A stretch of DNA of 28,631 nt from a bacterium. GTDB lineage: Bacteria > Hinthialibacterota > Hinthialibacteria > Hinthialibacterales > Hinthialibacteraceae. The position numbers and the translations under genes were made by a program. The stretch's first letter is position 1. Each line of letters begins with the position of its first letter. This document shows positions 3,787-22,855 of this stretch, in pieces. Under the pieces are notes generated by a model that worked only from the letters and a program-made list of their open reading frames with translations, searched no databases and was not told where the DNA came from. The stretch lies in contig JBHGBC010000071.1 of the NCBI GenBank assembly GCA_041946805.1, forward strand, positions 1 through 28,631. Direction: 5' to 3'.

Positions 3787-4016
3787 TCCTCTCCGGGCTC
3801 CGGAACCGCGTACCCGGTGCGTTGGGCGGGGATCCAGATTGAGGGAAAGCACGCGTGACCCAATCCGGTACGCCTTAAATCCATGATTCACTTCCCACCG
3901 TGTATTTTCGAGCGCTGTGGCAAAAGCCGGGGGGGTATCCATTGGTTTCTGCCCGGAATAATCCTGCCCTTTTTGACCGCCTGCGCTTCGTTTTCATGGC
4001 CTGCCTTGTTCCCCCC

Positions 4017-5459
4017 TCACTCCCTGACCAACGATTGATACACCCGGAGGTACTCGCCGGCGGAACGGTCCCAGGAGAAATCCATCCGCATCCCCCGGCG
4101 CGCCAGGGTCAACCACGCCTCGCGGTCTTCGAAATACGAGATGGCCCGCTCGCAGGCCTCCAGCAGCGCCGCGGGGGTGGCCTCCTCGAAGAGAAAACCG
4201 GTGCCGTCGCGCGATTCCCCCACGTCCAGCACCGTGTCCACCAGCCCGCCCGTGGCCCGCGCCACTGGGACCGTGCCATAGCGCAACGAATACATCTGGT
4301 TTAGTCCGCAGGGTTCATACAACGACGGCATCAGGAACATATCGGCGCCCGCCTCGATCTGGTGCGCCAGGCGGTTGTCGAAGGCGATGGCCACTCCGCA
4401 GGACTCGGGATATTGTTTCTGCAGCCCCCGGTACATTTCTTCGAGTTTGGGATCCCCCGTGCCCAGGATGACCACTTGCGTTCCCCGGCGGATCAGGCTG
4501 GGCAGCACCGCGCCCAGCAAATCCAATCCCTTCTGGTGCGCCAGCCGCGAGATCACGCCCAGGAGCGGCGCGCGTCCCGCCGGTTCGCTCAGTCCGAATT
4601 CCTTCCGCAGCGCCCGCCGGTTCGTGTCTTTCCCCTCTTCCACCGTGTCGATCGAGTAACGGGCCGCGATCTGGGTGTCCACTTCGGGCGACCAGACGCG
4701 GTAATCCACGCCGTTCAACACGCCCGACACTTTCTTTTGGTGCTTCGCCAACACCCCCTCCAATCCGCAGCCGTACGCCTTGGTCTGGATCTCCCGCGCG
4801 TACGTGGGACTGACCGTGGTCACCGCGTCGGCGAACACAATGGCTCCCTTCATCAAGTTCAGCTGATTGTAGAACTCCAACGCCTCCACGTGGTAATGCT
4901 CCCACCCGATCCCCGTCACCGGGAACAGAAACGGTGGAAACACGCCCTGGTAGGCCAAGTTGTGAATCGTGAAAACCGTCCTGATCCCCCCGAGGACCGG
5001 ATGCCCCGCGTGAACCGTTTTGAGGTAGATCGGCAACAGGGCTGTCTGCCAGTCATTGGCGTGCAGCAGATCGGGTTGGCAATGCCCCCGCTCGATGATC
5101 TCCAACACTCCCCGGCAAAAAAACGTGAACCGTTCAAGGTTGTCCGGGTAATCTTTCCCCTTTTCGGTGTACAGCTCGTTCCGGTGAAAAAATTCATCCT
5201 GCTCGATCAGGTACACGGGCGCCGGTTCGTCCGGCAGCCTTGTCCGCGCCAACCGGCCCGCCACCAGAGTGTCCTCGATGGGGACCTGGATCGCGCCCAG
5301 ATCTTCGCACTCGGCCTGCACCTGACGGTATTTCGGCATGACCAGCGACACCTCCACGCCTTGACGGCGCAAGGCCGCCGGCAACGACCGCTGAACGTCC
5401 GCCAATCCGCCCGTCTTCGCGAAGGGATCGATCTCCGATGCGGCTATCAAGACTTTCAT
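4017..5459 (-). CDS. glgA: Glycogen synthase (GT5)
   Basis: KTGGLADV ADP-glucose motif, HANDWQT, FTIHNLAYQG, ISRLAHQKG and MPSLYEPCGLNQMYSLRYGT in a 480-aa ORF. Confidence 0.97.
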   Translation of the reverse strand: MKVLIAASEIDPFAKTGGLADVQRSLPAALRRQGVEVSLVMPKYRQVQAECEDLGAIQVPIEDTLVAGRLARTRLPDEPAPVYLIEQDEFFHRNELYTEKGKDYPDNLERFTFFCRGVLEIIERGHCQPDLLHANDWQTALLPIYLKTVHAGHPVLGGIRTVFTIHNLAYQGVFPPFLFPVTGIGWEHYHVEALEFYNQLNLMKGAIVFADAVTTVSPTYAREIQTKAYGCGLEGVLAKHQKKVSGVLNGVDYRVWSPEVDTQIAARYSIDTVEEGKDTNRRALRKEFGLSEPAGRAPLLGVISRLAHQKGLDLLGAVLPSLIRRGTQVVILGTGDPKLEEMYRGLQKQYPESCGVAIAFDNRLAHQIEAGADMFLMPSLYEPCGLNQMYSLRYGTVPVARATGGLVDTVLDVGESRDGTGFLFEEATPAALLEACERAISYFEDREAWLTLARRGMRMDFSWDRSAGEYLRVYQSLVRE

Positions 5460-7405
5460 GATCGCGCTGTGGCTTCCCCCGATCTGTCCCGTTCTCCGGC
5501 CGGCGGGCCGGCCGTCCCGGCGTTCGCTTCCTCATACCAGCTCAGATCCGGCTGGCGGTCGGGACGCCCCGCCAAGGTTTCCAGGTACCGGACCACGGCT
5601 TGCATCCCCTCGGGCTGCGTCCGGGCCGGATGGGCCTCCAGAAATGACTTCATCAACGCGTCCCGGATTTCCTTCGTCAGGCTTTGGACCACCTGCCGGC
5701 CGATGACGCCGCGCGCCTCCTCGTAGGTCATCGGCCGGGAAGGCTCGATATCCTTCACGTAATATATCTCATACCCAAACCGGTTTTTCGATAGATTATA
5801 CACGCGCCGCGGACGGCCGATTTCTCCCGCCTCCAGGCCCTTCACCGGTTCCACCTGGCTGGGCCCGAGATCGCCCAGCGCCACCTGGCCCAACGGTCCT
5901 CCAGTGACCGGCAAGGAACTATGCTGCGGGAGTTGGGTCAGCGCCTCCTCGAAGGAAAGGCCTTCCCGCATCGCCGCGTACGCCCGGTTGGCTTCCGCCT
6001 CCGCTTTCTGGAACAGGATCAGCGTATCGTAATGCGGGGTGGAGGCTTGCACCGGCGCGCTGAAGAACATCACATGCAGGTCGTACCGGTTGGGGGTCTG
6101 AAAGTCGGGCAGGGTACGGTTTTGTTCATAAAATGCCCGCATTTGTTCCTCGGTCAACGCCCCCCGTTTGTCCACTGCCGACAAGATGTAATCCTGCGCC
6201 AATTGGTGCTGTTCCCAGTACGCCAGCGCCGGGGCAATCTCGTTTTCTCCCCACCCCCGGCCAAGGGCCTCGGCCAGAAACAGCGCCTTGTGCGTCAGGA
6301 ACGACAGGTATTCCTCCCGCGCCTCGGCCGTCCGTTTGCCGTTGGCCGCCGCCAGCCGCTCGAAATCACCCACCGTCAATTGATACACTCCGGGTATGGA
6401 GAGGATCACCGCCTGGGGATCCAGCGCCGCCGTGTCCTTCAGCCAGTCCAGGTTCACCAGCAGGCCGTGTTTCAGTTTCAATTCCTGGGCGTAAAGGAAC
6501 ACGCCTTGATTCTGCAATTCCTGCGTCCGCGTGGCGAGGATCGCGGGGCGGGCTTCTTCATAGGGAATATACTCCGGCGGCACGAAACGCAGACGCTTGA
6601 AGATGAAGAATTGATTCCCGGCCTCGAACACCTCGCTGACCTGCCCGTCCTTGAGCTCCATCAGCCGCCGTTCGATTTCCGGATCCGCCAGTCCGGGTGG
6701 AATTTCATTTTCCTTGCCCCGCTTTTCCGCCGGGGCGTCCGAATAGGTTTGCGCCACCGCCTCGAAGGGCGCGCCCGACTCGAGTTTCCCCCGCGCTTCC
6801 CGCGCCAACGCCTCCGCCTTCTCTCGTCCCCGCGGTTCCATCAGGATCCGGATGCCCTGGACTACATATACGTTTGTGTTCCTTTGAATGAACAACCGGT
6901 TCCGGTTTTCCTGGTAATACCGCTGATTGTCCGCCTCGGTGACCTGGATTTTCTTCAGGACCTCTTCCAGGAAAACCCGTTGAAACAGTTCATCCTGGAT
7001 GACATCTTTCCGGAACGCCTGGAACGTTCCCCGCCGGTCCAGGCCCGCCCCCCGCGCCCGTTCCGCCAGGTCCCGCTCGAAGCCGAGGGTTTTGGCGAGC
7101 TCTTCCATCCGCTGGGGCAGATCCTTCAACGCTTGACCGGCCGCCACTTCCGCGAAATCGTGCGATTCCTGGAACGCGATCAGAAAATCCCGCGCCGTCA
7201 CTGTCCGGTCTCCCAACGTCATTACCACCGCGTCGGGATCCGGCCGCGCCAGCTCTTCTTCCCGTCGTCCGCATTGAGCGCCGAGTATCACTAGCAATGC
7301 AGCCAGCCCGGCCGCCCAACATACAGTTCGCGCGTGGTTCACTCTCATCGGCAATCTTTTGCGATCCTTTCTCCGCTCAATCCGTGCCCCCTCCGTGCCC
7401 TCCAT
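5456..7405 (-). CDS. Periplasmic or lipoprotein peptidyl-prolyl isomerase (PrsA/SurA-like, two parvulin-like domains)
   Basis: Hydrophobic signal ending LGAQC (possible lipobox; alternative ATG at 7348), 'VVMTLGDRTVTARDF', 'FEAVAQTYSD', 'LKDGQVSEV' and a second 'GLSFEEAL...LEAGEIGRP' unit. Its stop overlaps the glgA start (ATGA). Confidence 0.8.
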   Translation of the reverse strand: MEGTEGARIERRKDRKRLPMRVNHARTVCWAAGLAALLVILGAQCGRREEELARPDPDAVVMTLGDRTVTARDFLIAFQESHDFAEVAAGQALKDLPQRMEELAKTLGFERDLAERARGAGLDRRGTFQAFRKDVIQDELFQRVFLEEVLKKIQVTEADNQRYYQENRNRLFIQRNTNVYVVQGIRILMEPRGREKAEALAREARGKLESGAPFEAVAQTYSDAPAEKRGKENEIPPGLADPEIERRLMELKDGQVSEVFEAGNQFFIFKRLRFVPPEYIPYEEARPAILATRTQELQNQGVFLYAQELKLKHGLLVNLDWLKDTAALDPQAVILSIPGVYQLTVGDFERLAAANGKRTAEAREEYLSFLTHKALFLAEALGRGWGENEIAPALAYWEQHQLAQDYILSAVDKRGALTEEQMRAFYEQNRTLPDFQTPNRYDLHVMFFSAPVQASTPHYDTLILFQKAEAEANRAYAAMREGLSFEEALTQLPQHSSLPVTGGPLGQVALGDLGPSQVEPVKGLEAGEIGRPRRVYNLSKNRFGYEIYYVKDIEPSRPMTYEEARGVIGRQVVQSLTKEIRDALMKSFLEAHPARTQPEGMQAVVRYLETLAGRPDRQPDLSWYEEANAGTAGPPAGERDRSGEATARS

Positions 7406-7533
7406 GATTCAATCCGCCTATCCACCGCCACCCCGTTTATCATGGTCTATCCGGTTCCTGAAAAACCTCCGCGGCCTCCGCGTCTCGTCGGTGAAATAGA
7501 ATGTTTCCCTTCCCGGCCGGCATAGCCTCCCCC

Positions 7534-8430
7534 TCAATGCGTCCACAGGTTGATCCGCACGATCAAGTCCGCGATCAGGCCCAGGACGAACATCTGCGCG
7601 CCGGCCATGGCCAGCACGATGAAGGTGGCGTCCATGAATTGTCCGGTCAACGGTTTGCTGAACAGCAACACCGCCAGCGCCAGGAGGCCCAACAGGAAAC
7701 TGAGGGGGAGAAACACGTTGAGCGGACGCAGCAACACCACCGTCCGCAAGATCACCAAAATCATGTTCCATGTGTCCCGGATGGGATGAAACTTCGACTT
7801 CCCCGCCCGCTTCTGGTACTGAATGGGGTGAAAATACACCCGCTTCCCCATCGAAAGGAACGCAACCGTAATCGTGGTCGTCAATGAAAATCCGTCCGGC
7901 AACAGTTTCTGAATCCTCTCGAGCGGCGCGCGCCGGATGGCCCGCAGTCCCGAGTTCAAATCCGGTATGGGCCGCCGCACCATCCATCCCGCAAACTGGC
8001 GGATCAGCCACTTGGCCGGCCGCCGCGTCCAGGGAACCCGGGCTTGAGGACCCAGCCGCGCCCCCACGACCATGTCGTATTCTTCCAAATGCCGGATGAC
8101 CGCCAAAATCTCCTCCAACCGGTACGTCCCGTCCGAATCGATGATCACCACCGCCTCGCCCCGGCTATGCTCCAGCCCGGTCTTGATCGCCGCTCCGTAA
8201 CCCCGGTTCTCCTCGTGCCGGATCACGGGATAAGGCTGCCCCCGCAGGATATCGGGCGTGCCGTCATCCGAGCCGTCATCCACCAGCGTGACTTCCATGG
8301 AATAGGGAACCGACTCGATCACCCGCTGGATTTCCGATAAAAAGGCGGGCAACCCCTCCGCCTCGTTATACACGGGGATAATGAGGGAGACACCCTGGCT
8401 GACCGGGGATTCCGGGGACGATTCGGCCAT
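7534..8430 (-). CDS. Glycosyltransferase family 2 (polyprenol-phosphate glycosyltransferase, DPM-synthase/GtrB-like)
   Basis: SLIIPVYNE, VDDGSDD, NRGYGAAIKTG, IDSDGTY and DLNSGLR motifs, plus two C-terminal TM helices. RBS GAGGAG upstream. Confidence 0.9.
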   Translation of the reverse strand: MAESSPESPVSQGVSLIIPVYNEAEGLPAFLSEIQRVIESVPYSMEVTLVDDGSDDGTPDILRGQPYPVIRHEENRGYGAAIKTGLEHSRGEAVVIIDSDGTYRLEEILAVIRHLEEYDMVVGARLGPQARVPWTRRPAKWLIRQFAGWMVRRPIPDLNSGLRAIRRAPLERIQKLLPDGFSLTTTITVAFLSMGKRVYFHPIQYQKRAGKSKFHPIRDTWNMILVILRTVVLLRPLNVFLPLSFLLGLLALAVLLFSKPLTGQFMDATFIVLAMAGAQMFVLGLIADLIVRINLWTH

Positions 8431-8538
8431 CCTGCTCCTCGCTGCCGGCGGGGCATGGCTCTCCCGCCCGGACTCACTGTAACCCTAGCCTTTGTGCGCC
8501 GCAAGTCCGGGACATTCTGTCATTTTACCGTAGGGATG

Positions 8539-8567
8539 TTGTGATTTTATGAGAATTCCTCTATAAT
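8539..8567 (+). promoter_or_regulatory. Putative sigma70 promoter TTGTGA-N17-TATAAT
   Basis: Consensus -10 at 8562-8567 with a 17-bp spacer to TTGTGA, about 50 bp upstream of the ATG at 8616. Confidence 0.55.
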
Positions 8568-8615
8568 TTCCCTTGTTCCCAAATGACTTTGATTTATAGG
8601 GGTTAGGGTGTGAAC

Positions 8616-8975
8616 ATGAACGAGGAACGCCTTTTGCGGTGGATCTCGGAAAAAGATCCCCGGTATCATCTGTACGCCTACCGGTTTGTTTTGGAAGCGT
8701 TGCGTTACACCCAATTCGTCTTCAAAAAACCCCGGCATATCACCGGCCAGGAACTGCTGACCGGCATCGCCCGCCTGGGACGCGAACGCTTCGGAGACAT
8801 GGCGCTCACCGTTTTTCAGGAATGGGGAATCCACCATTCCCGCGATTTCGGCAATATCGTCTTCAATCTGGTGGAATTGGGGGAAGTCAAGAAAACCGCC
8901 GAGGACCGCATCGAGGATTTCGACGCCGGTTTTGACCTGCAAGCCGAACTCAGCCGCGCTGAAATAGCCGGCTGA
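8616..8975 (+). CDS. Minf_1886 family protein (small family associated with PVC bacteria)
   Basis: Signature 'AYRFVLEAL...HITGQELL...FGDMALTVFQEWGI...DFGNIVFNLVE'. The ATG at 8616 is preferred; the ORF track starts at GTG 8610. Confidence 0.85.
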   Translation: MNEERLLRWISEKDPRYHLYAYRFVLEALRYTQFVFKKPRHITGQELLTGIARLGRERFGDMALTVFQEWGIHHSRDFGNIVFNLVELGEVKKTAEDRIEDFDAGFDLQAELSRAEIAG

Positions 8976-9004
8976 GCCACTTCCACTCCGCTTTCCCGCT
9001 CCGC

Positions 9005-9991
9005 TTAGGGATTGTCCAACGGTGTGACCGGACTCATCTGGGTCCGGGGACGGATTTCAATTTTGGCCTTCGAACGCAGTCCCTTGATCAATTCCTCGAT
9101 GATCTGCTGTTTTTTGGTCTGCATGACCAGGTCGCTGATGTCGTTCTTCTTCTGCACCTGGACGATGTGATACGCCCCCGGGGTCCGGATCGGATCCGTG
9201 ATGTCTCCGGGCTGCAAGCCGAAAACAATGTCGAATTCCGGATTCAACATGCCTTTTTTGACGGGCGGCAGCAGGCCCCGGTTGCGCCGCGTGGCCTCGT
9301 TCTGCGAAAAGGCCGCCACCAGGTTCGCGAAGGGCTCTCCCGACCGCGCCCGCAGCGCGATTTCTTCCGCTTTTTGCCGGATGGCCTGTTCCTGCTCCGG
9401 CAAGGATCCCGCGGGGATGTTCAACTGGATATGGGCGATTTCCACTTCCCCGCCGGGTTGGGCCTCCGGATGAGTCCGTTGGAATTCCTCGATTTCTTGC
9501 GCCGTGGGACGCTCCACTTGACGCCGCGCCAGCTGGAACGCCACCACTTCGTTCAAGTATTGGTCGTAGTTCATCCGGTATTGTGCCTGCCGGTACTCCT
9601 CCCAGGTCATGCCCATCGATTGTTCCTTCTGGGCCAGATCCTGGGGAGTGGTCAACGTGCTTTGGAAGGCGGCCATTTCCTGATTGGTCTGCCGCTCCAC
9701 TGTCGCGCGGATCCGTTCCAGCTCCTCGGGTGACAGCCGGTTCTTGACTTCCTGAGTGATCAAGGCCTGGTCAATCATCGCGTTGAGGATCCGGTTGCGG
9801 ACCTCCTGGTATTGCTCGTCGTTCATTTGGGTCAGTTTGCGGTCGAGCGCATAGCGGTACACGCGCGCATCCACTTCACCCGACAGAATCAACTCGTCGT
9901 TGACCTTCGCGTCGATGGTTTCCAGGATGCGGGCGTGGACCGCGGGCAGCGCCAGAAACAGGATCAGGCTGATCGGCACGCTCCGTTTCAT
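9005..9991 (-). CDS. SurA-like periplasmic chaperone/PPIase (SurA N-domain plus one parvulin domain)
   Basis: Signal peptide, 'IDAKVNDELILSGEV', 'ILNAMIDQALITQE', 'IAHIQL', 'FANLVAAFSQ' and 'LQPGDITDPIRTPGAYHIV'. Confidence 0.88.
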   Translation of the reverse strand: MKRSVPISLILFLALPAVHARILETIDAKVNDELILSGEVDARVYRYALDRKLTQMNDEQYQEVRNRILNAMIDQALITQEVKNRLSPEELERIRATVERQTNQEMAAFQSTLTTPQDLAQKEQSMGMTWEEYRQAQYRMNYDQYLNEVVAFQLARRQVERPTAQEIEEFQRTHPEAQPGGEVEIAHIQLNIPAGSLPEQEQAIRQKAEEIALRARSGEPFANLVAAFSQNEATRRNRGLLPPVKKGMLNPEFDIVFGLQPGDITDPIRTPGAYHIVQVQKKNDISDLVMQTKKQQIIEELIKGLRSKAKIEIRPRTQMSPVTPLDNP

Positions 9992-12436: not shown

Positions 12437-12763
12437 ATGAACCAAGTGAAACTGTTAGCCATCATGACCGGAGTGGCGGTCTTCGCGGCCGGTTGCTACA
12501 CCTCGCCGGCTCAGGAAGGGGCCATGTGGGGCGGAGCCACCGGGGCGATCGCGGGGCAACTCATCGGCGGCGACACCAAAGGGACCTTGATCGGCGCGGG
12601 TGTGGGCGCGCTGGGCGGCGCGTTGATCAACGACCAATACCAGCGGGAGAAATCCAACGCCCGGCAGCAAGGGTACCAGGAAGGCTACAACCAGGGCGCG
12701 GCCCAGGGCGGCCCCCGCGGCTACACCCAGCAGCAACCCCAATACAACACCGCCCCCCGGTAA
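12437..12763 (+). CDS. Glycine-zipper lipoprotein (YMGG-like)
   Basis: Lipobox AAGC, GxxxG repeats 'GAMWGGATGAIAGQLIGG...GAGVGALGGALI' and a Q/Y/G-rich tail. RBS AAGGAG. Confidence 0.88.
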   Translation: MNQVKLLAIMTGVAVFAAGCYTSPAQEGAMWGGATGAIAGQLIGGDTKGTLIGAGVGALGGALINDQYQREKSNARQQGYQEGYNQGAAQGGPRGYTQQQPQYNTAPR

Positions 12764-12782
12764 TTCGACTCGGATTTGAATT

Positions 12783-12835
12783 AAAAAAAACACGCCCGGA
12801 GAGATTTGAGACCTCTCCGGGCGTTTTTGGTTTTT
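12783..12835 (+). terminator. Rho-independent terminator, probably bidirectional
   Basis: A-run, stem ACGCCCGGAGAG/CTCTCCGGGCGT and T-run, located between convergent genes. Confidence 0.8.
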
Positions 12836-12845
12836 CAAAGGTTTT

Positions 12846-12878
12846 CCCTCACCCTGGCCCTCTCCCGGGGGGAGAGGG
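12846..12878 (+). repeat. Dispersed palindromic repeat CCCTCACCC-N-CCCTCTCCC-N-GGGAGAGGG, copy 1
   Basis: Near-identical to 20330-20362 and, inverted, to 23146-23178. Confidence 0.85.
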
Positions 12879-12890
12879 AAGAAGTTATTT

Positions 12891-12923
12891 GGTGGGCTAC
12901 CCTGCGCTTTGAGCCCACCCTGC
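12891..12923 (-). repeat. REP-like palindrome GCAGGGTGGGCT-N-AGCCCACC
   Basis: 8-bp stem GGTGGGCT/AGCCCACC with a GCAG lead on the minus strand. It resembles 3756-3786. Confidence 0.55.
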
Positions 12924-12963
12924 ATTGGGCTTTGTAATCCAAACTGAAAATTATGTGCAATTT

Positions 12964-14010
12964 CTACTTGTCTAGTGTCCCGGCCTTGGCGGTAAAATGG
13001 CGCGTGAGTACCTGATCCCATCTCCCGCGGAAGGGCTTCTCGATTTCCGTGAGAGGTTTCAGCCCGAATATCACCGCGATCGTGACCGGATCCACGCGGT
13101 ACGCGGTGTGCCCTTCATAAAATCCGTACCGCATGATGTAGTACGGTTCCATCTCGCCCGTGCGCAGCCGCGTCAGCCGGTCAATCAAGGCCGCCCGTTC
13201 GGCCGCGCTCAAATGCTCGTACGCCTGCCGCAGGAATTTCAACTCGTTTCCGTCCAACTCCCGCCAAAGTTCGATGTCAAACGCGCCCTTGATCTCATCG
13301 TTGAAGATGGATTCCTGAAATCCTTTGGTCCGCTTGGACTGAAGGTGAATCTCCCGTCCATGATACCAAAAACGGCTCACATCTTCTGAAAACCGCCCCA
13401 GCTTGCCGAGTTCGTACTCCCGGAGCAGCAGATTCCAGACGTGAAACAGGGGACGGGCCAGATCGGGGTGTTTCAAGCCCAACCGCCGCACCAGATCGTT
13501 GTCACCCCGCAGCACCGATAGGATGTCCTCGTCCTCGGCCAAGAAACCGATACCGGAAGTTGTCCCCGGCCGTCCCAGGCGGGTTATTTCCTCCACCGGC
13601 TTCCCCGTGATGCTCTTCACGCGCTCCAGCTCCTCCACGGAGTGCAGTCCGCTGGCCGCCAGGGTTGGAAAATCACTGCCATCGACCTGCAACTGCCCGC
13701 CTTTGCCGATCTTCTCGGCTCCATACTGCAGGTTGGCGCCGCCGTTTTCCACGGTCACCAGTACCAAGGCGCTTGGCCCCGCGGCCGTGCGGACCACCAG
13801 GTATTCAAGCCCCTCCCGGGTTACGCCCGGCGAGGTCAGCGTGAGAGCCGGAGGCAACGTGGCTGGATAAACCGGCACCTGTTGTTCCCCGATCGTCACG
13901 AACTCCGGATTCACCAAGTCCACGTTCAGCGCCGCCGCATACCCCGAGGCGGCCACCGCCGCAAGGAGCAATCCGCCAATCCACCGCCATCCCTTGATTT
14001 GGATATGCAT
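12964..14010 (-). CDS. Secreted hypothetical protein
   Basis: 348 aa with a signal peptide (WIGGLLLAAVAASGYA) and host-like codon use. The C-domain looks conserved (GFLAEDE; YGFYEGHTAYRVDP). Function not recognised. Confidence 0.75.
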   Translation of the reverse strand: MHIQIKGWRWIGGLLLAAVAASGYAAALNVDLVNPEFVTIGEQQVPVYPATLPPALTLTSPGVTREGLEYLVVRTAAGPSALVLVTVENGGANLQYGAEKIGKGGQLQVDGSDFPTLAASGLHSVEELERVKSITGKPVEEITRLGRPGTTSGIGFLAEDEDILSVLRGDNDLVRRLGLKHPDLARPLFHVWNLLLREYELGKLGRFSEDVSRFWYHGREIHLQSKRTKGFQESIFNDEIKGAFDIELWRELDGNELKFLRQAYEHLSAAERAALIDRLTRLRTGEMEPYYIMRYGFYEGHTAYRVDPVTIAVIFGLKPLTEIEKPFRGRWDQVLTRHFTAKAGTLDK

Positions 14011-14099: not shown

Positions 14100-14609
14100 T
14101 CAGCCTCTTGACTGGGTCTCATGCTCAGCGAGGAATCGCTCGACGTCGCCGATGAATTGGCCGGCTTTCTCTTCGATGCACGCCGTCAGGCGGTCGAGGC
14201 CGCCAAAGTCGAAGTCCTCGGCCAGGCCGTACTCCAGGATCGAGTCAACCCCCTTGGCCGGCGCCACCAGGCGGTATGCAGTCCAGCGGCTGTCCCGGAA
14301 CAACTCCCAGTATTTCCGTTGAACCTGCCTGTTTCTTCCCGCGAGCCATATTTCGAATCGGAACGCTTCGTAATTGAATACAATCGCGGCCTTCAAGTCC
14401 CGTTGCTTGAGCGGCGGCGGGATAATGGCGAAATAGGTCATATCCATGCATCCCTGATAAATCCCCGAAATGGAGTGATTCGGGTAAATGTTCTTGAAAT
14501 GCGTCCGCAAATTCATCATGTACCCGAGCAGCGCTCTGTATGCCTTTTGGATCGACCCGGTCCGAAGCTGGCCCCGAAGGTAATTCATGTCTTCCTGTAT
14601 CGATGGCAT
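14100..14609 (-). CDS. Conserved hypothetical protein (DUF7000-like)
   Basis: 169 aa with RBS GAGGAG. 'IQKAYRAL..YMMNLRTHF...YQG.MDMTYF...IVFNY..FRFEIWLAGRN..VQ.KYW' resembles this family as I recall it. Confidence 0.7.
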   Translation of the reverse strand: MPSIQEDMNYLRGQLRTGSIQKAYRALLGYMMNLRTHFKNIYPNHSISGIYQGCMDMTYFAIIPPPLKQRDLKAAIVFNYEAFRFEIWLAGRNRQVQRKYWELFRDSRWTAYRLVAPAKGVDSILEYGLAEDFDFGGLDRLTACIEEKAGQFIGDVERFLAEHETQSRG

Positions 14610-14699: not shown

Positions 14700-17600
14700 T
14701 CACTTCACTTCCAACTCGCTCGGCGGAGCGGCCTGCTTCTGCTCCGGATTGTAATATTCGTAAATCACCGCTTCCGGGGCCTTGGCCGTCATGGGCAGCG
14801 TCGCCTTCATGGGAACCTCGAGATCCAACGCCGCGCCACCTTCCATCGACTCCAGGTAGATCAACAGCTGCCGGGCGGTCAGCGTGTACCGGGCGATGGT
14901 TTTTTGGTCCACGTACTCGTCCAGCGTGGGCCGTTCCACCCGGAATCCGGGCGGGATGCCCACATCGATCATCACCATCTCCACCCGCTCCGGCCGCTGG
15001 TTCTTCGCGTGGATCCGGCAGGTCACCGTATCGTTGCGCCGCAGTTCCTTCCGGTCGTAATCCACCTGGATGTCAAACGGCGCGGCCGCGGTCTTTACCT
15101 CGCCCCACGGTTCGAAATATGTGCCTACGACCTGGTACAGCAGGCTGCCCTCCCCCTCCAGGTCGATTTCGATGGTTTGTTCATTCCCTTTAACGTATGG
15201 GCTCAAATCGATCTGCCGGAACAGGTCCGCGTTCTCCGGCGTGACCGCCAACCGCGCCGCGTCCTGCCCGTTCACCCGCGCCAGGACCGTGGCGTTGACC
15301 TCCCGCGTCGCCTGCTTCAGTGACAAGACCATCGCCTTGAGGGCCAGCACCGTCCCGTGCGTGGTCCCCCAGGTGCCTTGGGGATCCTTCTGCTGGATCA
15401 GCCAGTTAAGCGCCTTTCCCGTCTCGGTGTTGAACCGCCCGTCCTGGATCAGGGCCATCGCCGCCCAGGCCGTGGCCTCTACCGAGGCATGATCGCCCCG
15501 CGCATAACTCATGCTCGCTTCGGCGGCCCAGTGCATCTCGTTGCCTTGGATTTCACCCAGATTCACCAGTCGTTGGACACATTCCCGGGTAATATCACTG
15601 TCAGGAACCAGGGCTTGCAAGGCGTTGCACAGAATCCCCAGCGTGTAGGCGTCTGTCGCGTCTCCGGCGTGCTCCAAGAGATATTGCGTAGTGGGTCCGA
15701 GCTCGGATGGCGCCTCCGTCCGGCTGAGCGCCAGCGCCACGTAGGCCGTGGTCAGGAGCGGATTGTCCTGGATGCTTTGCCACATCTCGGCATGCGCGTA
15801 GTTTTCGTCCGGATCCCAGGTCCCGTCCGGCCGCCGTTGATCGATCAGCCAGCGCGCCGTGCGGGGGATGAGGTTTTCGTCCACCGGGTACACCTCGTTC
15901 ATGTCGGCGAATTCCATCAGCCCATACGCCGTCAACACACGCGTGGCCGGGGGATTGCCGAACACCTGGAATCCGCCGCCGGGGATCTCGAACGTCAACA
16001 GCCGCTGGTAGCCCAGGTTGATATACTCCCGCGCCTTCATCTCGATTTCCGGCGTGATGTTCTGGGTTTGCTTCATGTAATTCAGCGCCAGCACGTTGGG
16101 ATACGTGGTCGAGCTGGTCTGCTCGAAACACCCGTTGGGCATTTGCAGGATCGAATCCAGCCCCTCCACCACCTGGCTGAAGATGCCGGGATAAATCTTC
16201 ACGAACAATTTGTCCGCGCCCGGAACCCGTCCTTCGGGGAACATCACTGTGTGCTTCACGCCGTTGTCCAGCCGCCCGTTGAACGTGATGTACCGCGCTT
16301 CGCCGTTGGGCCGCACCTCGATGTCCCGCCCCGTGGCGTCGCGGTCCTCGGTTCCCCAGGCGTACACTGTCAGCGGGTTCTTCCCCAGCCGGGTGGCGCG
16401 GACACGGTACGACACCGAGGTCACTTCATTGGCCGCCACGCTCACGCGGCGCTCGAATCCGCCTTCCAGCAGGTCAAACCAGGGCGCGCGTTCCAGCTCC
16501 ACTTGCACGGTCTGCTCGGCCGGCAGGTAGTTGTACACCGCCACGGGAATCGTCACTTCGTCGTCCTGGATCAACGCCACCGGCAGGTCCAGATCCACGA
16601 AGAAGGGCTTGAACACCTTCAGCGCCGCCGTGGAATCGCCCACCGCCCCGTTTTTCGCGTTGGCCATCGCCGACATCCGCCAGGTGGTGATCGAATCGGC
16701 CACGGGCAGATTCAGCATCGCCAGCCCTTGCTCGTCGGTGATCAATTCGGGTGTGTAGAACAGCGTCTCGGGGAAATATCGCCGCACCCGCACCGATTTG
16801 TCTTTCACCGCTTCATTACGGATAATCTCGGCGGGAGAAGCCGGAGTAGTGGCCATCTGCTGTTCCAATTCCGTGACCTTGACGATCTCTTCCCGGATTG
16901 CATGTTTCAATTCGCGGGATTCCTCGTCTTGTTTAAGAAGGCTCTCACGTAGTTGCGTGCCGTCCACCTCGCCGTTCACCGCCAGCGGCAGGGTTTCCTC
17001 TTCACCCAGGGCCACGGCTTTATCGGGATCGAGCACCGAGGCCGGATCGGGGACCTGAAGTTCATTCGATAAATCCAAATTCCCGAGTTGTTGAGCGGGA
17101 ACGGCTTCATGGACTTTTTCTCCAACAAAAATCCCACTTTCATCCTGCCCTGCCAGTTTCCTGAAATCCGCTCCGGCGAGTTCGGGCTGGTTGTTTTTTT
17201 CAACATTGGGAAATGCCAGAGATAGCGATTCCTTCAAATCCATTGGCATCGCTCCGGCGGGGGCCTCTTCCGGCGCGGCCATCATCCCGTAGCCGCCCGC
17301 CATTTCGGCTTCCACTTCGACCCTAGCCAGCCGTTCAGCGCCCTTGGCCATGTCCAGTATTATGGGCGCGCCCACGATGATCTCCGGCTGCTGGATTCCA
17401 TCCAATAAAGCACTCCCCTTGTCCCCAACGGCGCGCCCCCGTTCCATGGGGCCGCCCATCCTGCGGAGGTTGAATCCCCTCCGCCCGTAGCGGTCCACCG
17501 GGACGTTCGGCACGGCGTAGAGGTACTGAGCCTGGTCACCGCCCGGTCCGGCCCTGCCTCCCTTATCACCCTGGAGCGCCGGTTCCTGGGGCTGGGCGGC

Positions 17601-20228
17601 ATCCGCTATTCCCGTGGCGGCGGGGACTTTTATGAAATACCACCGCGCGTTAGACCGTCCGTCCGCGGCCATGATCTGGTAATAATCGGCCGGGCCTTGG
17701 ATATCGTCCGCGGTGTTGAACTTCCCATCCGGCCCCGCGCTGGAGACGCCGACCCGGTTGTCCCTAAAGTCCACGCGGAAAGGTACGCCCCAGGGATCCA
17801 CCGTCTTCACGGCGTCCGGCGGCAGGTTCAGCGAGAGCAACAGCTCCTCCGCATCCTGTTCCGGCGTGTTCATGGGCAGCGAAGTCTGCCTCAGGTAATT
17901 CTGCAGGTTGTATACCTCCTGCCTGGCTTGTTCGATCTTCGTGCTTCCCGTGAAGATGTTGAGGGCGTAGGCGGAACTGACGTCCAGTTTGGAGAGCAGC
18001 GCTTTCGAGAGATTCGCGTTCTTCTCATACTCCACCGCCGACAGCCGCACCACCTTGTCCAGCGCGTAGCCGTGGATTTCCACCTTGGGCTGCAGCAGTT
18101 CCTTCTCGATGGCGAAGAACACCTTGGCGAGGCCCGGCTCCTTCTCGCTCAGGCTGTACACGCTTTCGTCCACGATGTGCAGGCCCATCGCCGCCCGCAC
18201 CGGCTCGCCCGATCCGCTCCGCACCGCCACCCGCAGCCGCGCCGGCTGGCCCGGTTCGTATTGCTCCTGGTCGGAAGTGATCTCGATCCGCAAGTCGTCA
18301 CTTCGCAAAACCACCACCTGCCGCGTGTCCCGCACCAGGTTGCCGTCCGGCCGGATGACATACGCGCTCAACGCCAACGTTCCCGAGAGCGCATTGTCCA
18401 AGGGAACGGCCAGCGCGGCGCGGCCGTCTGCCAACGGCAGGGTTTTGGTGAGTACCGTTTGCCCATTTTTGATGATGTCCAGAAATGCGGTCTCCTTTTG
18501 GAAAGCGGGCGAGAACACCGTGAGGTTCATCGCCTGCCCCACCGTATAGACGCCCTTGTCCACCCGCAGCAACAGGCTTTCCACTGCGTTCTCCGTCTCC
18601 AGGTCCTTGACCAGCACCGCCCGCCGGCCCTCCTCTTCCGCCGTGATGCTTAACACCGGCATATCGGGCCGCGGGACGGCCACGTTTTGCGTCATCGGGA
18701 CGCCGGGAGTGGATTCCACGGCTTGGGGAATCAACGTCACGGAGGCGATGCCGTTCGCGTCGCACTGCAATTCCACGGATTTGGGCAGGAACCGCGAATC
18801 CACCCGCAGCTTCGGCTTGGCCACGCTGCCGTCGGGATGCGACGCCACCAGATAGATCTCGTTCTCCACCCCGGGGACCAACTTGCCGCTTTCGGGAATC
18901 GCGTCCACCTGGATGGGATCCACCGCCACGGGGAACGTATGGATCTTCTGCTCCTCGTGATCGGCGCTGTCCCGCACCCGCACATCGAGCTGCACGATCG
19001 TATCACCCTTGAACAGCGGCTGGCCCACGAGTTTATCGGGGATGACGAACGAAAACTCGCCGCGCCCCTCTTCACCGGTCTCGATATTCACCGTTTCGAA
19101 TTCGTTGAACCCCACATCGAAGCAGTTGGCGGTGATCTTCACCTTCGCCCCCGCCACCGGCTTGCCGAAAAAGTAGCGCGCTTCCACGTTCCCCTTCACG
19201 GATTCGCCCGGCGCATAGAAGGTCCGCTCCGTGTGCACCGCCACCCGGAACTTGGGCAGCACATATTCATACACCTGAGCGGTCTTCTCGGTCACTTCTT
19301 TATCCAAAATTGCCTTGAAGCGGTACTCGCCCTGGTTGACCTCCTCCGCCAGCTGAAAATCCGCCGCCACGATGCCGAACTCGGACGTGGTTTTAATCTC
19401 TTTGAAAACTTTGTTGCCCTTGCCGTCGAAGACTTCCAGCGTCACCGCTTTCTCCGCCAGGGGGACGCCCGTAGCCTGGTTGACCACCAGCGCCCGGATG
19501 TGAATCAACTGCCCCGGCTGGTACACCGGCTTGTCCGTGGTGAGAAAAATCCGGGTTCCGGGAACGATCTGCACCTCCGAGGTTACTTCGTCCTTGCCGT
19601 AGGCCGATTCAATCGTCACCGTCAGCGTCTGGCTGCCTTCCAAGGTTCCCGGCACTGCGAACCGCACATCCGCGTTGCCCCGCTCGTCCGAAACCGCTTC
19701 CGCCAGCGTGACCGCCTCGCCGCCCTGGGCGGGAACACACCGCGCGGTGACGGCCGCCCCCGCCACCGGTTCGTTTCCCGGAGCGCGGGTCACCACCACC
19801 CGCAAGACCGCCTGACTCCCGCTGAGCCATTGCGGCTGGCCGATCACATGCACGTCCTGCGTTTGACGAGACGCCCCCAGACGCTTCAGCCAGGTATGGC
19901 CCATCAGGTCGATCCGCACCCGGCACGTGTCCATTTCCGGAGTCCCGGCCGCGACCGGCATGGCCACCTGCTCGGATTGTCCGCCGGGAAACAGCACCAG
20001 TTTCTTTTCGACCTTGGCTAAAGACCGGGAACTCTCGTCCAGCAAGGTCACCACCAGGTCCCCCATCGCTTGCGTATCCAACGCGTTTTGCAAGGGAAGC
20101 GTGATGAGGAGCGCGTCCGCCTTCCGCTCCGTTTGGATTTGGTCCTTGTCCAGCGTGATTTCGCCCTGGCTCGCCCCTGGCAGCAAGACGGCGAACCACA
20201 GCATCCATATCGGTATCGTTTTCATCAT
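14700..20228 (-). CDS. Secreted alpha-2-macroglobulin / thioester-containing protein (TEP)
   Basis: 1842 aa with a signal peptide, MG domains (TDKPVYQPGQ, EYVLPKF, VDESVYSL), an A2M domain (RYFPETL, DSITTW, PFFVDLDLP), the thioester MPNGCFEQ (GCFEQ at 16119-16133) and a C-terminal receptor-binding-like domain (MIDVGIPPGF, YEYYNPE). Confidence 0.95.
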   Translation of the reverse strand: MMKTIPIWMLWFAVLLPGASQGEITLDKDQIQTERKADALLITLPLQNALDTQAMGDLVVTLLDESSRSLAKVEKKLVLFPGGQSEQVAMPVAAGTPEMDTCRVRIDLMGHTWLKRLGASRQTQDVHVIGQPQWLSGSQAVLRVVVTRAPGNEPVAGAAVTARCVPAQGGEAVTLAEAVSDERGNADVRFAVPGTLEGSQTLTVTIESAYGKDEVTSEVQIVPGTRIFLTTDKPVYQPGQLIHIRALVVNQATGVPLAEKAVTLEVFDGKGNKVFKEIKTTSEFGIVAADFQLAEEVNQGEYRFKAILDKEVTEKTAQVYEYVLPKFRVAVHTERTFYAPGESVKGNVEARYFFGKPVAGAKVKITANCFDVGFNEFETVNIETGEEGRGEFSFVIPDKLVGQPLFKGDTIVQLDVRVRDSADHEEQKIHTFPVAVDPIQVDAIPESGKLVPGVENEIYLVASHPDGSVAKPKLRVDSRFLPKSVELQCDANGIASVTLIPQAVESTPGVPMTQNVAVPRPDMPVLSITAEEEGRRAVLVKDLETENAVESLLLRVDKGVYTVGQAMNLTVFSPAFQKETAFLDIIKNGQTVLTKTLPLADGRAALAVPLDNALSGTLALSAYVIRPDGNLVRDTRQVVVLRSDDLRIEITSDQEQYEPGQPARLRVAVRSGSGEPVRAAMGLHIVDESVYSLSEKEPGLAKVFFAIEKELLQPKVEIHGYALDKVVRLSAVEYEKNANLSKALLSKLDVSSAYALNIFTGSTKIEQARQEVYNLQNYLRQTSLPMNTPEQDAEELLLSLNLPPDAVKTVDPWGVPFRVDFRDNRVGVSSAGPDGKFNTADDIQGPADYYQIMAADGRSNARWYFIKVPAATGIADAAQPQEPALQGDKGGRAGPGGDQAQYLYAVPNVPVDRYGRRGFNLRRMGGPMERGRAVGDKGSALLDGIQQPEIIVGAPIILDMAKGAERLARVEVEAEMAGGYGMMAAPEEAPAGAMPMDLKESLSLAFPNVEKNNQPELAGADFRKLAGQDESGIFVGEKVHEAVPAQQLGNLDLSNELQVPDPASVLDPDKAVALGEEETLPLAVNGEVDGTQLRESLLKQDEESRELKHAIREEIVKVTELEQQMATTPASPAEIIRNEAVKDKSVRVRRYFPETLFYTPELITDEQGLAMLNLPVADSITTWRMSAMANAKNGAVGDSTAALKVFKPFFVDLDLPVALIQDDEVTIPVAVYNYLPAEQTVQVELERAPWFDLLEGGFERRVSVAANEVTSVSYRVRATRLGKNPLTVYAWGTEDRDATGRDIEVRPNGEARYITFNGRLDNGVKHTVMFPEGRVPGADKLFVKIYPGIFSQVVEGLDSILQMPNGCFEQTSSTTYPNVLALNYMKQTQNITPEIEMKAREYINLGYQRLLTFEIPGGGFQVFGNPPATRVLTAYGLMEFADMNEVYPVDENLIPRTARWLIDQRRPDGTWDPDENYAHAEMWQSIQDNPLLTTAYVALALSRTEAPSELGPTTQYLLEHAGDATDAYTLGILCNALQALVPDSDITRECVQRLVNLGEIQGNEMHWAAEASMSYARGDHASVEATAWAAMALIQDGRFNTETGKALNWLIQQKDPQGTWGTTHGTVLALKAMVLSLKQATREVNATVLARVNGQDAARLAVTPENADLFRQIDLSPYVKGNEQTIEIDLEGEGSLLYQVVGTYFEPWGEVKTAAAPFDIQVDYDRKELRRNDTVTCRIHAKNQRPERVEMVMIDVGIPPGFRVERPTLDEYVDQKTIARYTLTARQLLIYLESMEGGAALDLEVPMKATLPMTAKAPEAVIYEYYNPEQKQAAPPSELEVK

Positions 20229-20523: not shown

Positions 20524-22191
20524 TCATTCGCTCAAGCTGATCGCGCCGCCCTTGCCCGGATCGGCCTTCAACTCCGGACGCAGATGCCCATCCAGGCCGG
20601 TGGGAATCGCGCTGAATTTCCAGGCCGCCTCCGGACGTAAGTGATAGAGTTTGATCAGGATTTCGTTCCAGCCCGCCCTAAGTGGCAACATCACGGCGTA
20701 TTGGTCTTTCTGAAAATCCTGGTTCGTGATTTGGCCCCACACGGGATCGTTGTTGCACCAGATCCGGATGCCATCGCCGAATCCGACCTGCAAAAAGATC
20801 TCCTCGTCCGTGGCGCTGTGGATGTAGGTCCGCGCAAAGGCGCTCGCCGGGGCGGAGGGATTCTTGAATTCCTGCCGCAGGTCGATTTCCAGCCCGCGTT
20901 CCCGCCGCAGTTCGTACCGCGGTTGGGTCCGGGGAGTCCGCCGCGGCTTGAGCCACGAGGTGAAACGGGATTTTCCATCCTCCTCTGGCAGCGTCTCCGC
21001 CGGCAACGGCCCCATCAGCCACCAGGATTCGATGTAATACGTGTCCCGCAGGGTGTTCTCCACTTGCGCCAGCTTCCGCGAGGCTTTCTGCCGCTCGGGA
21101 TGCTGTTCCGGAAACTGCGCCATCACCCGCCGGCACCAGGCCATGGCCCGGTCCGGATGATCTCGCCGCATGATCTCGCCGAACTCCATCGCCAGCCGCG
21201 CGAACTCCAGGCTGGCCGGATACCGCGCCGCGTACGCCTCCAATTCGTTCTCGGCTTGCTCCACGGTCTCCGGACGGTTCAACCACAACTTGACCAGCGA
21301 CTCCCGCGCCTGCCGGCAATAGGTCTCCTCCTCCGGAAAACGGCTGATCATCCGCTGGTAAGTCCCCACCGCTGTCTCTATGTCGCCCAGCGCCCGGTGC
21401 GCGTCGGCGATGAGGATCAGCGCCAGCGCGATCCAATAATTCTCGCCGGGATACTGTTTCTCCACGTCCTCGAGCATCAGGATGGCGCTTTTCAGCAGCG
21501 TCTTCTGGTCTTCGCCGATTTTGGTAAAGGCGGTGTTATAGAGTTTCAACCCGGTGCGGAACAACTCCCCGGCTTTTTGATACTCGTCCGCTTCCTCCGG
21601 TTTCGATGCCAACTTCGCCCTGGGCTCCCCCTGGAAGGCACGGACCGGCCGTCCCGCCGCCAGCGTTTCGGATTCGGGGGTAGAAGCCGGGCTGTCTCCC
21701 CGCATCGCCGCCGCTACACCCAGCGTGGGCGCCTCGGCCGGGGCGGAAGGAGCATCATGAGTTTGGTCCATCGCCACGGATGGGGCGGCGGGAGGAACTA
21801 CAAGTCCCGCTGCCGCTGGCTCGGGAACCGTCTCGTTCCGGACGGTATGCCGAAGTGTAACGGCATGCTGCAAGGTATAGGGATACACCCCGGCGAGCAG
21901 CAGCAGGAACGAGGCCGCCGCCGCGAACTTCATCCAGGTCCGTATCCGCGGCGGCCGTATCGGCAGTTCCTCGGCGAACGGTTCCGCGGTCACCTTCCGC
22001 TCCAGCCAGACGGGCACGGCCGGATCATTCATTTTCCTCAGGATGGCATGCGCGCGTTGCACTTCGCCCCACTCCGCCGCGCAGGCGGGGCAGTCCGCCA
22101 GGTGCTTCTCCAGCCGGGCGGTTTCCTCCGGATCCGGTGGTTCATACAGCCGTTCCATCATCAACGCGCGCGCGGTTTGGCATCGCATCAT
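20524..22191 (-). CDS. Zinc-finger (zf-HC2/ZAS) transmembrane anti-sigma factor with extracytoplasmic TPR repeats and a C-terminal beta-domain
   Basis: C-x(n)-HLADCPAC (HxxxCxxC), one TM helix (FAAAASFLLLLAGVY), a Pro/Ala linker, TPR-like repeats ending YP/FP, and a 'WWLMGPL...YIHS...DGIRIWCN...LRAGWNEILIKL' beta-sandwich. It overlaps the sigma stop (ATGA). Confidence 0.88.
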   Translation of the reverse strand: MMRCQTARALMMERLYEPPDPEETARLEKHLADCPACAAEWGEVQRAHAILRKMNDPAVPVWLERKVTAEPFAEELPIRPPRIRTWMKFAAAASFLLLLAGVYPYTLQHAVTLRHTVRNETVPEPAAAGLVVPPAAPSVAMDQTHDAPSAPAEAPTLGVAAAMRGDSPASTPESETLAAGRPVRAFQGEPRAKLASKPEEADEYQKAGELFRTGLKLYNTAFTKIGEDQKTLLKSAILMLEDVEKQYPGENYWIALALILIADAHRALGDIETAVGTYQRMISRFPEEETYCRQARESLVKLWLNRPETVEQAENELEAYAARYPASLEFARLAMEFGEIMRRDHPDRAMAWCRRVMAQFPEQHPERQKASRKLAQVENTLRDTYYIESWWLMGPLPAETLPEEDGKSRFTSWLKPRRTPRTQPRYELRRERGLEIDLRQEFKNPSAPASAFARTYIHSATDEEIFLQVGFGDGIRIWCNNDPVWGQITNQDFQKDQYAVMLPLRAGWNEILIKLYHLRPEAAWKFSAIPTGLDGHLRPELKADPGKGGAISLSE

Positions 22192-22817
22192 GCTTCGATC
22201 CCCCGTTCTTCCAGCCCGCGCCGCAGCGCCAGCAGCGCATAGTGCATCCGGCTCTTCACCGTGTTGGCGGAGCAGCCCAGCACCCGGCCGATTTCTTCAA
22301 AGGTCAACGATGTTTTCTCCCGCAGCAGCAAGACCTCCCGCTGCGCTTCGGGCAACGATTGAATCACTTCTTCGATCGCCTCCTGCACTTCGCTCCGGTA
22401 ACTTTCCTCCCGGGGCGAGCAATCCGGGCTGGGATAATCGTGAATGCCCGGCGCGTCCGGATCGTCCTCCCGCGCGGGATACAGTTGGATGATTTCCGCG
22501 CTCTTTTTTTTCCGCATGGCGTCGATGCAGGCCGACCGGGTGAGGGTGAACAGCCAGGTCGTGAACTTGGCCTTGGGTTGGTAGCGTCCCCGGTTCCGGA
22601 CCAGGCGGTAGAAGACGATTTGGAACACATCGTCCACCGGGTCGGAAGCCGGCAGGAACAAACGGATAAACGCGTACACCGATTGCTTGTGCCGGTGGAA
22701 TAGCTCTTCGAAGGCCTCCGCCTCGCCCCGGGCGTAACGCAGCATCACCTCTTCATCCGAACAGGCCGGCAGGTCCTTGATCTCTTCCGTGGGTTGTTCC
22801 ATGACCGTGCTTTGCAT
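22188..22817 (-). CDS. ECF RNA polymerase sigma factor
   Basis: 'SDEEVMLRYARGEAEAFEELF', region 2 'DDVFQIVF...FTTWLFTLTRSACID' and region 4 'LPEAQREVLLLRE...FEEIG..LG...NTVKSRMHYA'. The start is ATG 22817 or 22802; the ORF track uses TTG 22847. Confidence 0.95.
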   Translation of the reverse strand: MQSTVMEQPTEEIKDLPACSDEEVMLRYARGEAEAFEELFHRHKQSVYAFIRLFLPASDPVDDVFQIVFYRLVRNRGRYQPKAKFTTWLFTLTRSACIDAMRKKKSAEIIQLYPAREDDPDAPGIHDYPSPDCSPREESYRSEVQEAIEEVIQSLPEAQREVLLLREKTSLTFEEIGRVLGCSANTVKSRMHYALLALRRGLEERGIEA

Positions 22818-22829
22818 GTTGTGGAATGG

Positions 22830-22855
22830 AACGCCGGGAAACGCCAATGGTTTTA
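22830..22855 (-). promoter_or_regulatory. Putative autoregulatory ECF promoter TAAAAC-N16-CGTT
   Basis: Matches the AAAC-N16-CGT pattern of SigW/SigM/SigX-type ECF promoters and lies directly upstream of the sigma ATG. Confidence 0.5.

Follow-up and report, generated by a model that had tools for sequence, protein, structure and literature searches.

What does a complement-type histidine do in a bacterial alpha-macroglobulin? The question is raised by the 28,631-nucleotide stretch of DNA analysed here (the window; GenBank assembly GCA_041946805.1, contig JBHGBC010000071.1, from an uncultured environmental bacterium of the Hinthialibacterota), whose longest open reading frame (ORF) encodes P0001, a protein of the alpha-macroglobulin/thioester-containing protein (TEP) family. 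Alignments place its His1479 in the position of the His with which complement C3 and C4B form an acyl-imidazole, and we lean slightly toward the view that P0001 is a secreted covalent protease trap, in which this residue would allow a wider range of proteases to be captured. The elements on which the argument turns are the following.

14700..20228, minus strand: the alpha-macroglobulin/TEP-family gene encoding P0001 (1842 aa), defined by the ORF list and its translation and by Pfam searches and phmmer searches against Protein Data Bank (PDB) chains
16119..16133, minus strand: thioester motif G-C-F-E-Q, aa 1366-1370, with the Cys1367 codon at 16128-16130 and the Gln1370 codon at 16119-16121
15786..15794, minus strand: His1479-Ala-Glu1481, predicted equivalent of the C3 His/Glu pair (C3d chain index 133/135), from residue alignments to C3d, CD109 and A2M

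Both motifs lie where the sequence-only reading of this DNA had put them. PNGCFEQ, with the Cys codon listed above, was matched in a minus-strand read of 501 bases (15700-16200) and in the P0001 translation, and a coordinate script run on that translation placed H-A-E-M, 112 residues past the thioester Cys and within QRRPDGTWDPDENYAHAEM, at exactly 15783-15794, with the His1479 codon at 15792-15794. The phmmer alignment of C3d ('qkpdgvfqedapvihqem') with P0001 ('rrpdgtwdpdenyahaem') is ungapped over this segment, and His, Glu and Met all coincide. The C3d His is index 133 of chain 1c3d_A, and Cys1367 falls on index 17, assuming no gap between chain index 7 and 17; the human C3 sequence and the 116-residue Cys-to-His spacing that the earlier reading had given both match this alignment. 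The His of the CD109 'vihsel' motif likewise falls on His1479 in the alignment to the PDB chain, whereas human A2M, as had also been stated, has Asn there, the first Asn of 'sllnnaikgg' occupying the His1479 column. The spacing from the conserved 'DG' to the His/Asn column ('DG + 10') is identical in P0001, C3, A2M and a clade of Acidobacteriota proteins with Asn at this position. Judged from these alignments, His1479 is the equivalent of the acyl-imidazole-forming His of C3 and C4B.

Conservation of the His among homologues, which the earlier reading had proposed as a check, was gauged in three samples: the 120 best word-indexed hits, query included, of 3644 proteins at E <= 0.001 (7999 scored), hereafter the nearest homologues; the best 80 of 570 confirmed stretches of species genomes, hereafter the loci; and the best 150 of 12,198 50%-identity cluster representatives at E <= 0.001. 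GCFEQT is invariant in the nearest homologues (120/120) and GCFEQ in the loci (80/80), and the thioester motif is found in 148 of the 150 representatives. The His is kept in 111 of the nearest homologues (the others having D in 6, N in 1, Y in 1 and one gap), in 45 of the loci and in 63 of the representatives. Of the same 120 proteins, 111 also have Glu at the +2 column, although the positions around the pair are variable. Conservation of this order goes beyond chance.

The loci without His carry Asn (34) or Ala (1), and the states sort by phylum. Asn is found in 32 of 32 loci whose records name Acidobacteriota, in an invariant-looking 'F-I-N-E-G-A-T-N-R' whose spacing from the conserved 'DG' is that of 'L-L-N-N-A-I' in A2M. 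The Asn-state loci of the Acidobacteriota branch are L033, L035-L037, L039-L042, L045-L049, L051, L054, L056-L060, L062-L065, L067-L070, L072, L074-L076, L079 and L080. His occupies the column in all loci of Armatimonadota (10), WOR-3/Caldifarciminota (5), Chloroflexota (4) and Vulcanimicrobiota (2), in single loci of Omnitrophota, Cloacimonadota, Stahliibacteriota, Hydrogenedentota, Zixiibacteriota and Myxococcota, and in all 18 loci that lack a phylum assignment. Across the more divergent representatives the column further admits A (24, one of these rows being a misaligned His), a gap (23), N (7), D (6), R (6), Q (4), S (4) and others at no more than 3 each. On a FastTree phylogeny of 151 thioester domain (TED) sequences, built with the trait's own columns included, no fewer than 17 changes of the His state are required, against 47-53 in the first five of 100 label shuffles, and the strict Hx[ED]xW motif, present in 37 of the 151, needs 7 against 32-36 in shuffles. 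As far as sequences can tell, the His column varies family-wide, the P0001 clade holds His-x-Glu firmly, and a frequent alternative is the very residue of animal A2M. Since Asn, Ala, Asp, Arg or Gln can take the place of the His elsewhere in the family, the position is not structurally fixed, and the retention of His in the P0001 clade suggests a functional role.

The fold in which this residue is predicted to lie is likewise that of the animal proteins. An AlphaFold2 model of the TED built with 50 homologues (predicted local distance difference test score, pLDDT, 87.2; predicted template-modelling score 0.88) matched CD109 (Z 32.2), TEP1 (Z 32.0), A2M (Z 31.8) and C3d (Z 30.0) in VIA fold comparisons, and Foldseek agrees with these matches. 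It aligns with CD109 over 279 residues at a root-mean-square deviation (rmsd) of 2.3 A, with about 25% identity over the TED, and with C3d (1c3d) over 273 residues at 2.5 A.

Around the TED, the protein is laid out as follows.

20160..20228, minus strand: probable Sec signal peptide (aa 1-23, MMKTIPIWMLWFAVLLPGASQGE...), recognised by a hydrophobic N-terminus, with a presumed cleavage site
aa 226-310, minus strand: MG2, Pfam E 3e-24
aa 321-394, minus strand: MG3, Pfam E 1e-10
18150..18569, minus strand: bait-region domain A2M_BRD (PF07703), aa 554-693, Pfam E 4e-14
16785..18068, minus strand: insert of great length at the bait position, about aa 721-1148, flanked by the anchors EIHG717 and RRYFPET1149
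17667..17951, minus strand: pseudopilin (GspG)-like folded module, about aa 760-854, DPWG...GPDGKFNTADDI, inside the bait insert
16494..16766, minus strand: A2M (MG7) domain (PF00207), aa 1155-1245, Pfam E 5.9e-23
15330..16181, minus strand: thioester domain TED_complement (PF07678), aa 1350-1633, Pfam E 5e-48, with the same span from the genome search
14733..14984, minus strand: C-terminal MG8/receptor-binding-type domain A2M_recep (PF07677), aa 1749-1832, Pfam E 5.3e-12

With its MG domains and a TED bearing CxEQ, P0001 is a clear member of the A2M/TEP superfamily; the Pfam scan returned 9 families at E <= 0.01, and the six domains tabulated above exceed the curated cut-offs. Among those 9 families there is no anaphylatoxin (ANATO) domain, nor did Pfam detect a C-terminal C345C/NTR domain, the protein ending 10 residues past the A2M_recep match. 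In phmmer searches against PDB chains its best matches are CD109 (4e-66), A2M (6e-66) and A2ML1 (8e-63), followed by the weaker C3 (2e-45), TEP1 (1.5e-43) and Salmonella A2M (2e-15). The N-terminus is hydrophobic (Kyte-Doolittle 2.3 over 12 aa) and lacks a lipobox Cys, there being zero Cys in residues 1-45, so P0001 is probably a soluble exported protein. Of the 120 nearest homologues, 106 look full-length; 105 of these share the hydrophobic N-terminus and 10 have a lipobox-like pattern.

The bait position is unusual in its size and content. The insert measures 430 aa in P0001, set against a median of 218 aa (range 36-651) among those family proteins, 129 of 261, in which both anchors occur; it is compositionally biased, and Pfam run on it alone found 0 families at E <= 0.1. 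The 'DPWG...GPDGKFNTADDI' motif within it, or the second half of that motif, recurs in 100 of the same 129 proteins. We read the module as pseudopilin-like because of this conserved motif, because PF08334 (T2SSG) scores in homologues (1.3e-7 in the homologue P0059, and among precomputed matches for many family hits), and because an AlphaFold2 model of residues 740-885, with a core pLDDT of 84-97 and a long helix plus strands, finds the major pseudopilins GspG, EpsG and PulG as its best Foldseek matches, at E 0.012 or weaker and with zero matches at E <= 0.001. The A2M_BRD domain and the insert of about 430 aa together would provide P0001 with an exposed bait stretch that proteases may cleave.

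For what the His would do in such a protein, the animal family offers two precedents. In C3 and C4B it attacks the exposed thioester to give an acyl-imidazole, which reacts with hydroxyls and water in <1 s (PMC7864068; PMC9156758). In human A2ML1, described as a monomeric protease inhibitor with an equivalent His-1084, the glycerol reaction is reported for the wild type only, and the His is needed to conjugate acetylated thermolysin, with a Ser ester identified (PMC7864068; Harwood et al. 2021); other known inhibitors, including ECAM and SaA2M, are without this His according to Harwood et al. (PMC7864068). Since His1479 is equivalent to the C3 residue, is predicted to lie in a C3d-like fold, is conserved in its clade and is often replaced elsewhere by the A2M-type Asn, enhanced hydroxyl reactivity of the P0001 thioester may reasonably be expected. 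The sequence-only reading had gone further and proposed opsonin- or adhesin-like attachment to carbohydrate surfaces rather than protease trapping alone. Its chemical part, reactivity toward hydroxyls, still stands as reasonable; the step from there to an opsonin or adhesin is not supported, because the inhibitor A2ML1 uses the same His, so that the residue supports broadened reactivity and does not tell an opsonin from an inhibitor. Nor did we find any pointer to carbohydrate targets: the bait-region domain is present, the two C3-specific domains named above were not detected, and CD109, A2M and A2ML1 are closer relatives than C3.

These same three features, namely the bait-region domain, the lack of detectable C3-specific domains and the kinship with A2M, CD109 and A2ML1, incline us toward the protease trap. 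We take A2ML1 as the functional model: P0001 shares with it an A2M-family architecture (bait region, TED and receptor-binding domain, RBD) and the acyl-imidazole-forming His, and differs in its long bait insert with the pseudopilin-like module, in being bacterial and in the position of its gene behind a pair of genes for an extracytoplasmic function (ECF) sigma factor and an anti-sigma factor. Under this model, Cys1367 and Gln1370 of GCFEQ would form a buried internal thioester; a protease cutting within the exposed insert would trigger a conformational change that exposes it; His1479 would then attack the thioester to give a short-lived acyl-imidazole, with Glu1481 as a possible helper; and this intermediate would acylate the closest nucleophile, be it the hydroxyls of Ser, Thr, Tyr or sugars or the amines of Lys, or else be quenched by water. 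For a protein of such architecture the nearest target would be the cutting protease itself, and the His would broaden its covalent capture, as in A2ML1. We infer in this scheme the formation of the thioester, the acyl-imidazole chemistry, the cleavage of the bait, a monomeric state and a protease as target.

Some points weigh against the trap as just outlined. The His-bearing hairpin (model residues 131-150) is the weakest ordered part of the TED model, with a pLDDT of about 70, and the three-dimensional correspondence of His1479 with C3 His1126 stands at the level of the whole-domain match to C3d. The A2M variant N1088H is reported to fail to form its thioester, which indicates that inserting a His is not sufficient in every context (PMC7864068). 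The folded pseudopilin-like module occupies the bait position, which hardly fits a simple promiscuous bait and brings to mind the structured anaphylatoxin (ANA) insert of C3. Finally, Anopheles TEP1 is similar in architecture (a single-chain TEP without ANA or C345C) and yet complement-like, so architecture alone does not set trapping apart from the tagging of surfaces; it is described as having a thioester followed, some 100 residues on, by a catalytic His (PMC5489563), and is regarded as complement-like in an account in which protease inhibition is not shown (PMC9156758).

Surface tagging in the manner of C3 and TEP1 is, in our judgement, unlikely. The acyl-imidazole would here esterify glycan hydroxyls on a competitor, on a predator or on the bacterium's own envelope, and P0001 would serve to mark the surface, much as an opsonin does, or as a covalent adhesin, in place of inhibiting proteases. 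The activation region of C3 contains the ANA domain, and the folded module plus linker in the bait position of P0001 are formally similar to it. P0001 and C3 have the same His-x-Glu pair, and a second His-bearing paralogue in the genome, described below, suggests diversification. Hydroxyl reactivity through this His is what is reported to let C3 and C4B conjugate to glycans (PMC7864068), and TEP1, with its catalytic His (PMC5489563), provides a similar architecture and a matching TED fold. Against this stand the Pfam-level lack of anaphylatoxin and C345C domains, the closer relationship to CD109, A2M and A2ML1 than to C3, the service of the same His in a true protease inhibitor, A2ML1 (PMC7864068), and the fact that the scan of 20 window ORFs brought up no lectin, receptor or convertase-like partner. 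Nor is a phagocyte-type downstream reader known from bacteria.

Set beside the animal proteins one by one, P0001 shares with C3 and C4B the fold of the TED and, residue for residue with the 'vIHQEM' of C3d, the His and the Glu at +2, and departs from C3 in the two missing domains and in overall similarity (2e-45, as opposed to about 1e-66 for A2M and CD109). CD109 is its best solved relative by both sequence and fold, with the His aligned, and is nevertheless an animal cell-surface protein without the ECF context or the pseudopilin-like insert. Human A2M is alike in overall architecture and in its bait-region domain (E 6e-66), and unlike in the Asn of the His column (N1088; PMC7864068), which in the bacterial family marks the Acidobacteriota branch and not P0001; A2M is further described as a tetramer able to trap proteases non-covalently (PMC7864068). 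In the thioester motif itself, P0001 has GCFEQ where CD109, A2M and one of its own paralogues have GCGEQ and ECAM has GCLEQ.

That the His might be non-catalytic we regard as rather improbable. The thioester would then react directly, in the manner of A2M and C4A and with a preference for amines, and the His would be structural, for example by capping the helix that follows; in the TED model it is residue 139, right at the N-terminal border of the helix formed by residues 140-147. The large sister clades without His (Asn in 34 of 80 loci, with Ala, Asp, Arg and Gln in many representatives), the repeated changes of state on the TED tree and the context dependence evident from the defective A2M N1088H (PMC7864068) would all sit well with such a role. 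On the other side, the His and the +2 Glu are kept in 111 of 120 clade proteins while neighbouring positions vary, the same pair is catalytic in C3, C4B and A2ML1 (PMC7864068; PMC9156758), and the variability of the column elsewhere argues against a structural demand for His.

The gene neighbourhood brings in a further element, the pair of regulatory genes immediately upstream.

20524..22191, minus strand: anti-sigma factor, directly upstream of the macroglobulin gene, Pfam zf-HC2 6.6e-8 plus TPR
22188..22847, minus strand: ECF-type sigma factor, Pfam Sigma70_r2, r4 and Sigma70_ECF, with a 4-base overlap with the anti-sigma start

The anti-sigma factor combines an N-terminal zf-HC2 domain, a hydrophobic segment near aa 86-105 and a TPR-containing outer part. 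The same pair stands upstream in all six nearest-clade loci with enough flank (L002-L007), and in the Acidobacteriota-type loci the same upstream place is occupied by a divergent sigma-r4 ORF and a zf-HC2/CarboxypepD_reg ORF, which look unrelated to it. Sufficient upstream sequence (at least 2.5 kb) was available in 61 of the 80 loci, in which 136 ORFs were scanned at Pfam E <= 1e-4. An explicit Sigma70 or zf-HC2 hit occurs upstream in 21 of these 61, and the count for the pair rises to 25 if four CarboxypepD_reg-only loci of the same ORF cluster are added; the loci with the pair are L002-L007, L035 and 18 more, 6 of them His-type and 19 Asn-type. The Acidobacteriota pairs emerged from ORF clustering combined with Pfam, single-sequence phmmer searches for sigma factors having reached the nearest clade only. 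The homologue P0059 is a His-type macroglobulin with an N-terminal fusion to a zf-HC2 domain and a hydrophobic segment.

The upstream sigma factor of L028 was excluded as a member of such a pair, being a housekeeping-type sigma after dnaG. Four loci (L021, L023, L026 and L030, of which L026 is from WOR-3) have a HAMP histidine kinase and an EAL-domain protein upstream, and three Acidobacteriota loci (L039, L056 and L062) a Ser/Thr kinase with TPR repeats. With these kinase/EAL and kinase-TPR loci besides the sigma pairs, signalling genes recur upstream of the macroglobulin family.

Taken together, these elements would permit a far-reaching picture, which we put forward as a speculation and consider very unlikely in its entirety: the family, instead of being plain inhibitors, would be the bacterial equivalent of the thioester-protein system of animals. 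On this view a trigger would cleave a giant activation region with a pseudopilin-like domain at the place of the C3 anaphylatoxin, the His would catalyse esterification of hydroxyls on an attacker or on the cell's own envelope, and this covalent tagging would be coupled to a transcriptional alarm through the ECF sigma/anti-sigma pair, as the fusion in P0059 might suggest. The split by phylum between His (Omnitrophota-like lineages, Armatimonadota, WOR-3 and others) and Asn (Acidobacteriota) would then mirror those of C4B and C4A and of C3 and A2M, having arisen independently in free-living bacteria. Least probable of all in our estimate is that the macroglobulin serves chiefly as an extracytoplasmic detector, with bait cleavage or thioester discharge changing its conformation, the anti-sigma factor receiving this signal and a regulon for stress or defence being turned on, and with capture being secondary: the same-strand adjacency in the window, its recurrence in the nearest clade and in the wider survey, divergent Acidobacteriota-type pairs included, and the P0059 fusion would accord with it, but adjacency is equally explained by plain regulation of the macroglobulin as a member of an ECF regulon, the pair is lacking in 36 of the 61 loci, and the fusion occurs in only 1 of the 120 listed proteins.

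In its thioester motif, its bait insert and its gene context P0001 differs from every characterised relative. Among bacterial macroglobulins, the kinds characterised to date are, to our knowledge, two: the ECAM/SaA2M type and the MagD type, which has no thioester. ECAM (YfhM) and SaA2M resemble P0001 in being bacterial, exported, monomer-type thioester macroglobulins with CxEQ, and they are reported to require covalent trapping (PMC7864068). By sequence, the P0001 family resembles the animal A2M, CD109 and TEP proteins far more than ECAM. YfhM of E. coli K-12 matches over the TED at a BLASTP E of 5e-8, with the 'PDG...H.E' hairpin not conserved and no His, and Salmonella SaA2M reaches 2e-15 at full length as opposed to about 1e-66 for the animal proteins. 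Unlike the ECAM/SaA2M type, P0001 is without a lipobox, bMG3 is absent from its Pfam scan, and bMG10 scores 17.4 bits, under the cut-off of 26.2. Moreover, E. coli yfhM abuts pbpC, whereas neither a transglycosylase nor a penicillin-binding protein was found among the 20 window ORFs scanned.

The relevant passages of a review discuss bacterial macroglobulins as acquisitions by host-associated Gram-negative bacteria. The P0001 family is very large, as the 12,198 cluster representatives and relatives in at least 570 candidate stretches of species genomes attest, and its members come mostly from free-living environmental phyla. In one and the same alignment column it shows the dichotomy of His and Asn seen in the animal proteins. 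A full-text literature search returned no account of a catalytic His in bacterial macroglobulins, of the P0001 family or of the ECF link; Budd et al. 2004, which lay outside that search, may bear on it. The superfamily itself is known; what is new is the combination of an animal-type TED and RBD, GCFEQ, a division of His and Asn types by phylum, a pseudopilin-like module in the bait and a conserved upstream sigma/anti-sigma pair, of which the last two are testable features. Should the His work as it does in C3 and A2ML1, the family would serve as a simple bacterial model of how thioester chemistry is tuned, would inform the question of how complement-type chemistry arose and might supply new covalent-capture reagents.

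The source assembly (6.70 Mb, 96.8% complete) encodes three macroglobulin family members, the window gene included. The second, on contig C257 (L086:8427-13634, minus strand), is His-type, with 'MPYGCGEQNM' and ADGSWEPVGFVIHSELVGG, and carries 'VIHSEL', identical to the His motif of CD109; it is more animal-like than P0001, with CD109 as its best PDB match (1e-125), A2M at 4e-122 and TED_complement at 2e-71. A TPR protein is encoded upstream of it. The third, from contig C1 (L087:7626-13046, minus strand), belongs to the bacterial type: it has GCIEQ, bMG3/bMG10 and N-terminal CarboxypepD_reg repeats, and its His-bearing hairpin is deleted.

As for the rest of the window, the gene next downstream of that for the macroglobulin encodes a DUF7000 protein (14100-14609, minus strand, Pfam 3e-52). 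It and the ORFs at 12455-14010 were rejected as conserved partners, having no phmmer match in any of the 80 loci, as was orf488, which has matches in only 2 of them. Further along, on the minus strand at 1577-5459 and 5456-9991, a GH57 glycoside hydrolase gene stands beside one for a glycogen/starch synthase, and two genes for PPIC-type peptidyl-prolyl isomerases lie on either side of one for a family-2 glycosyltransferase within 1577-9991 (minus strand); these look like ordinary housekeeping genes.

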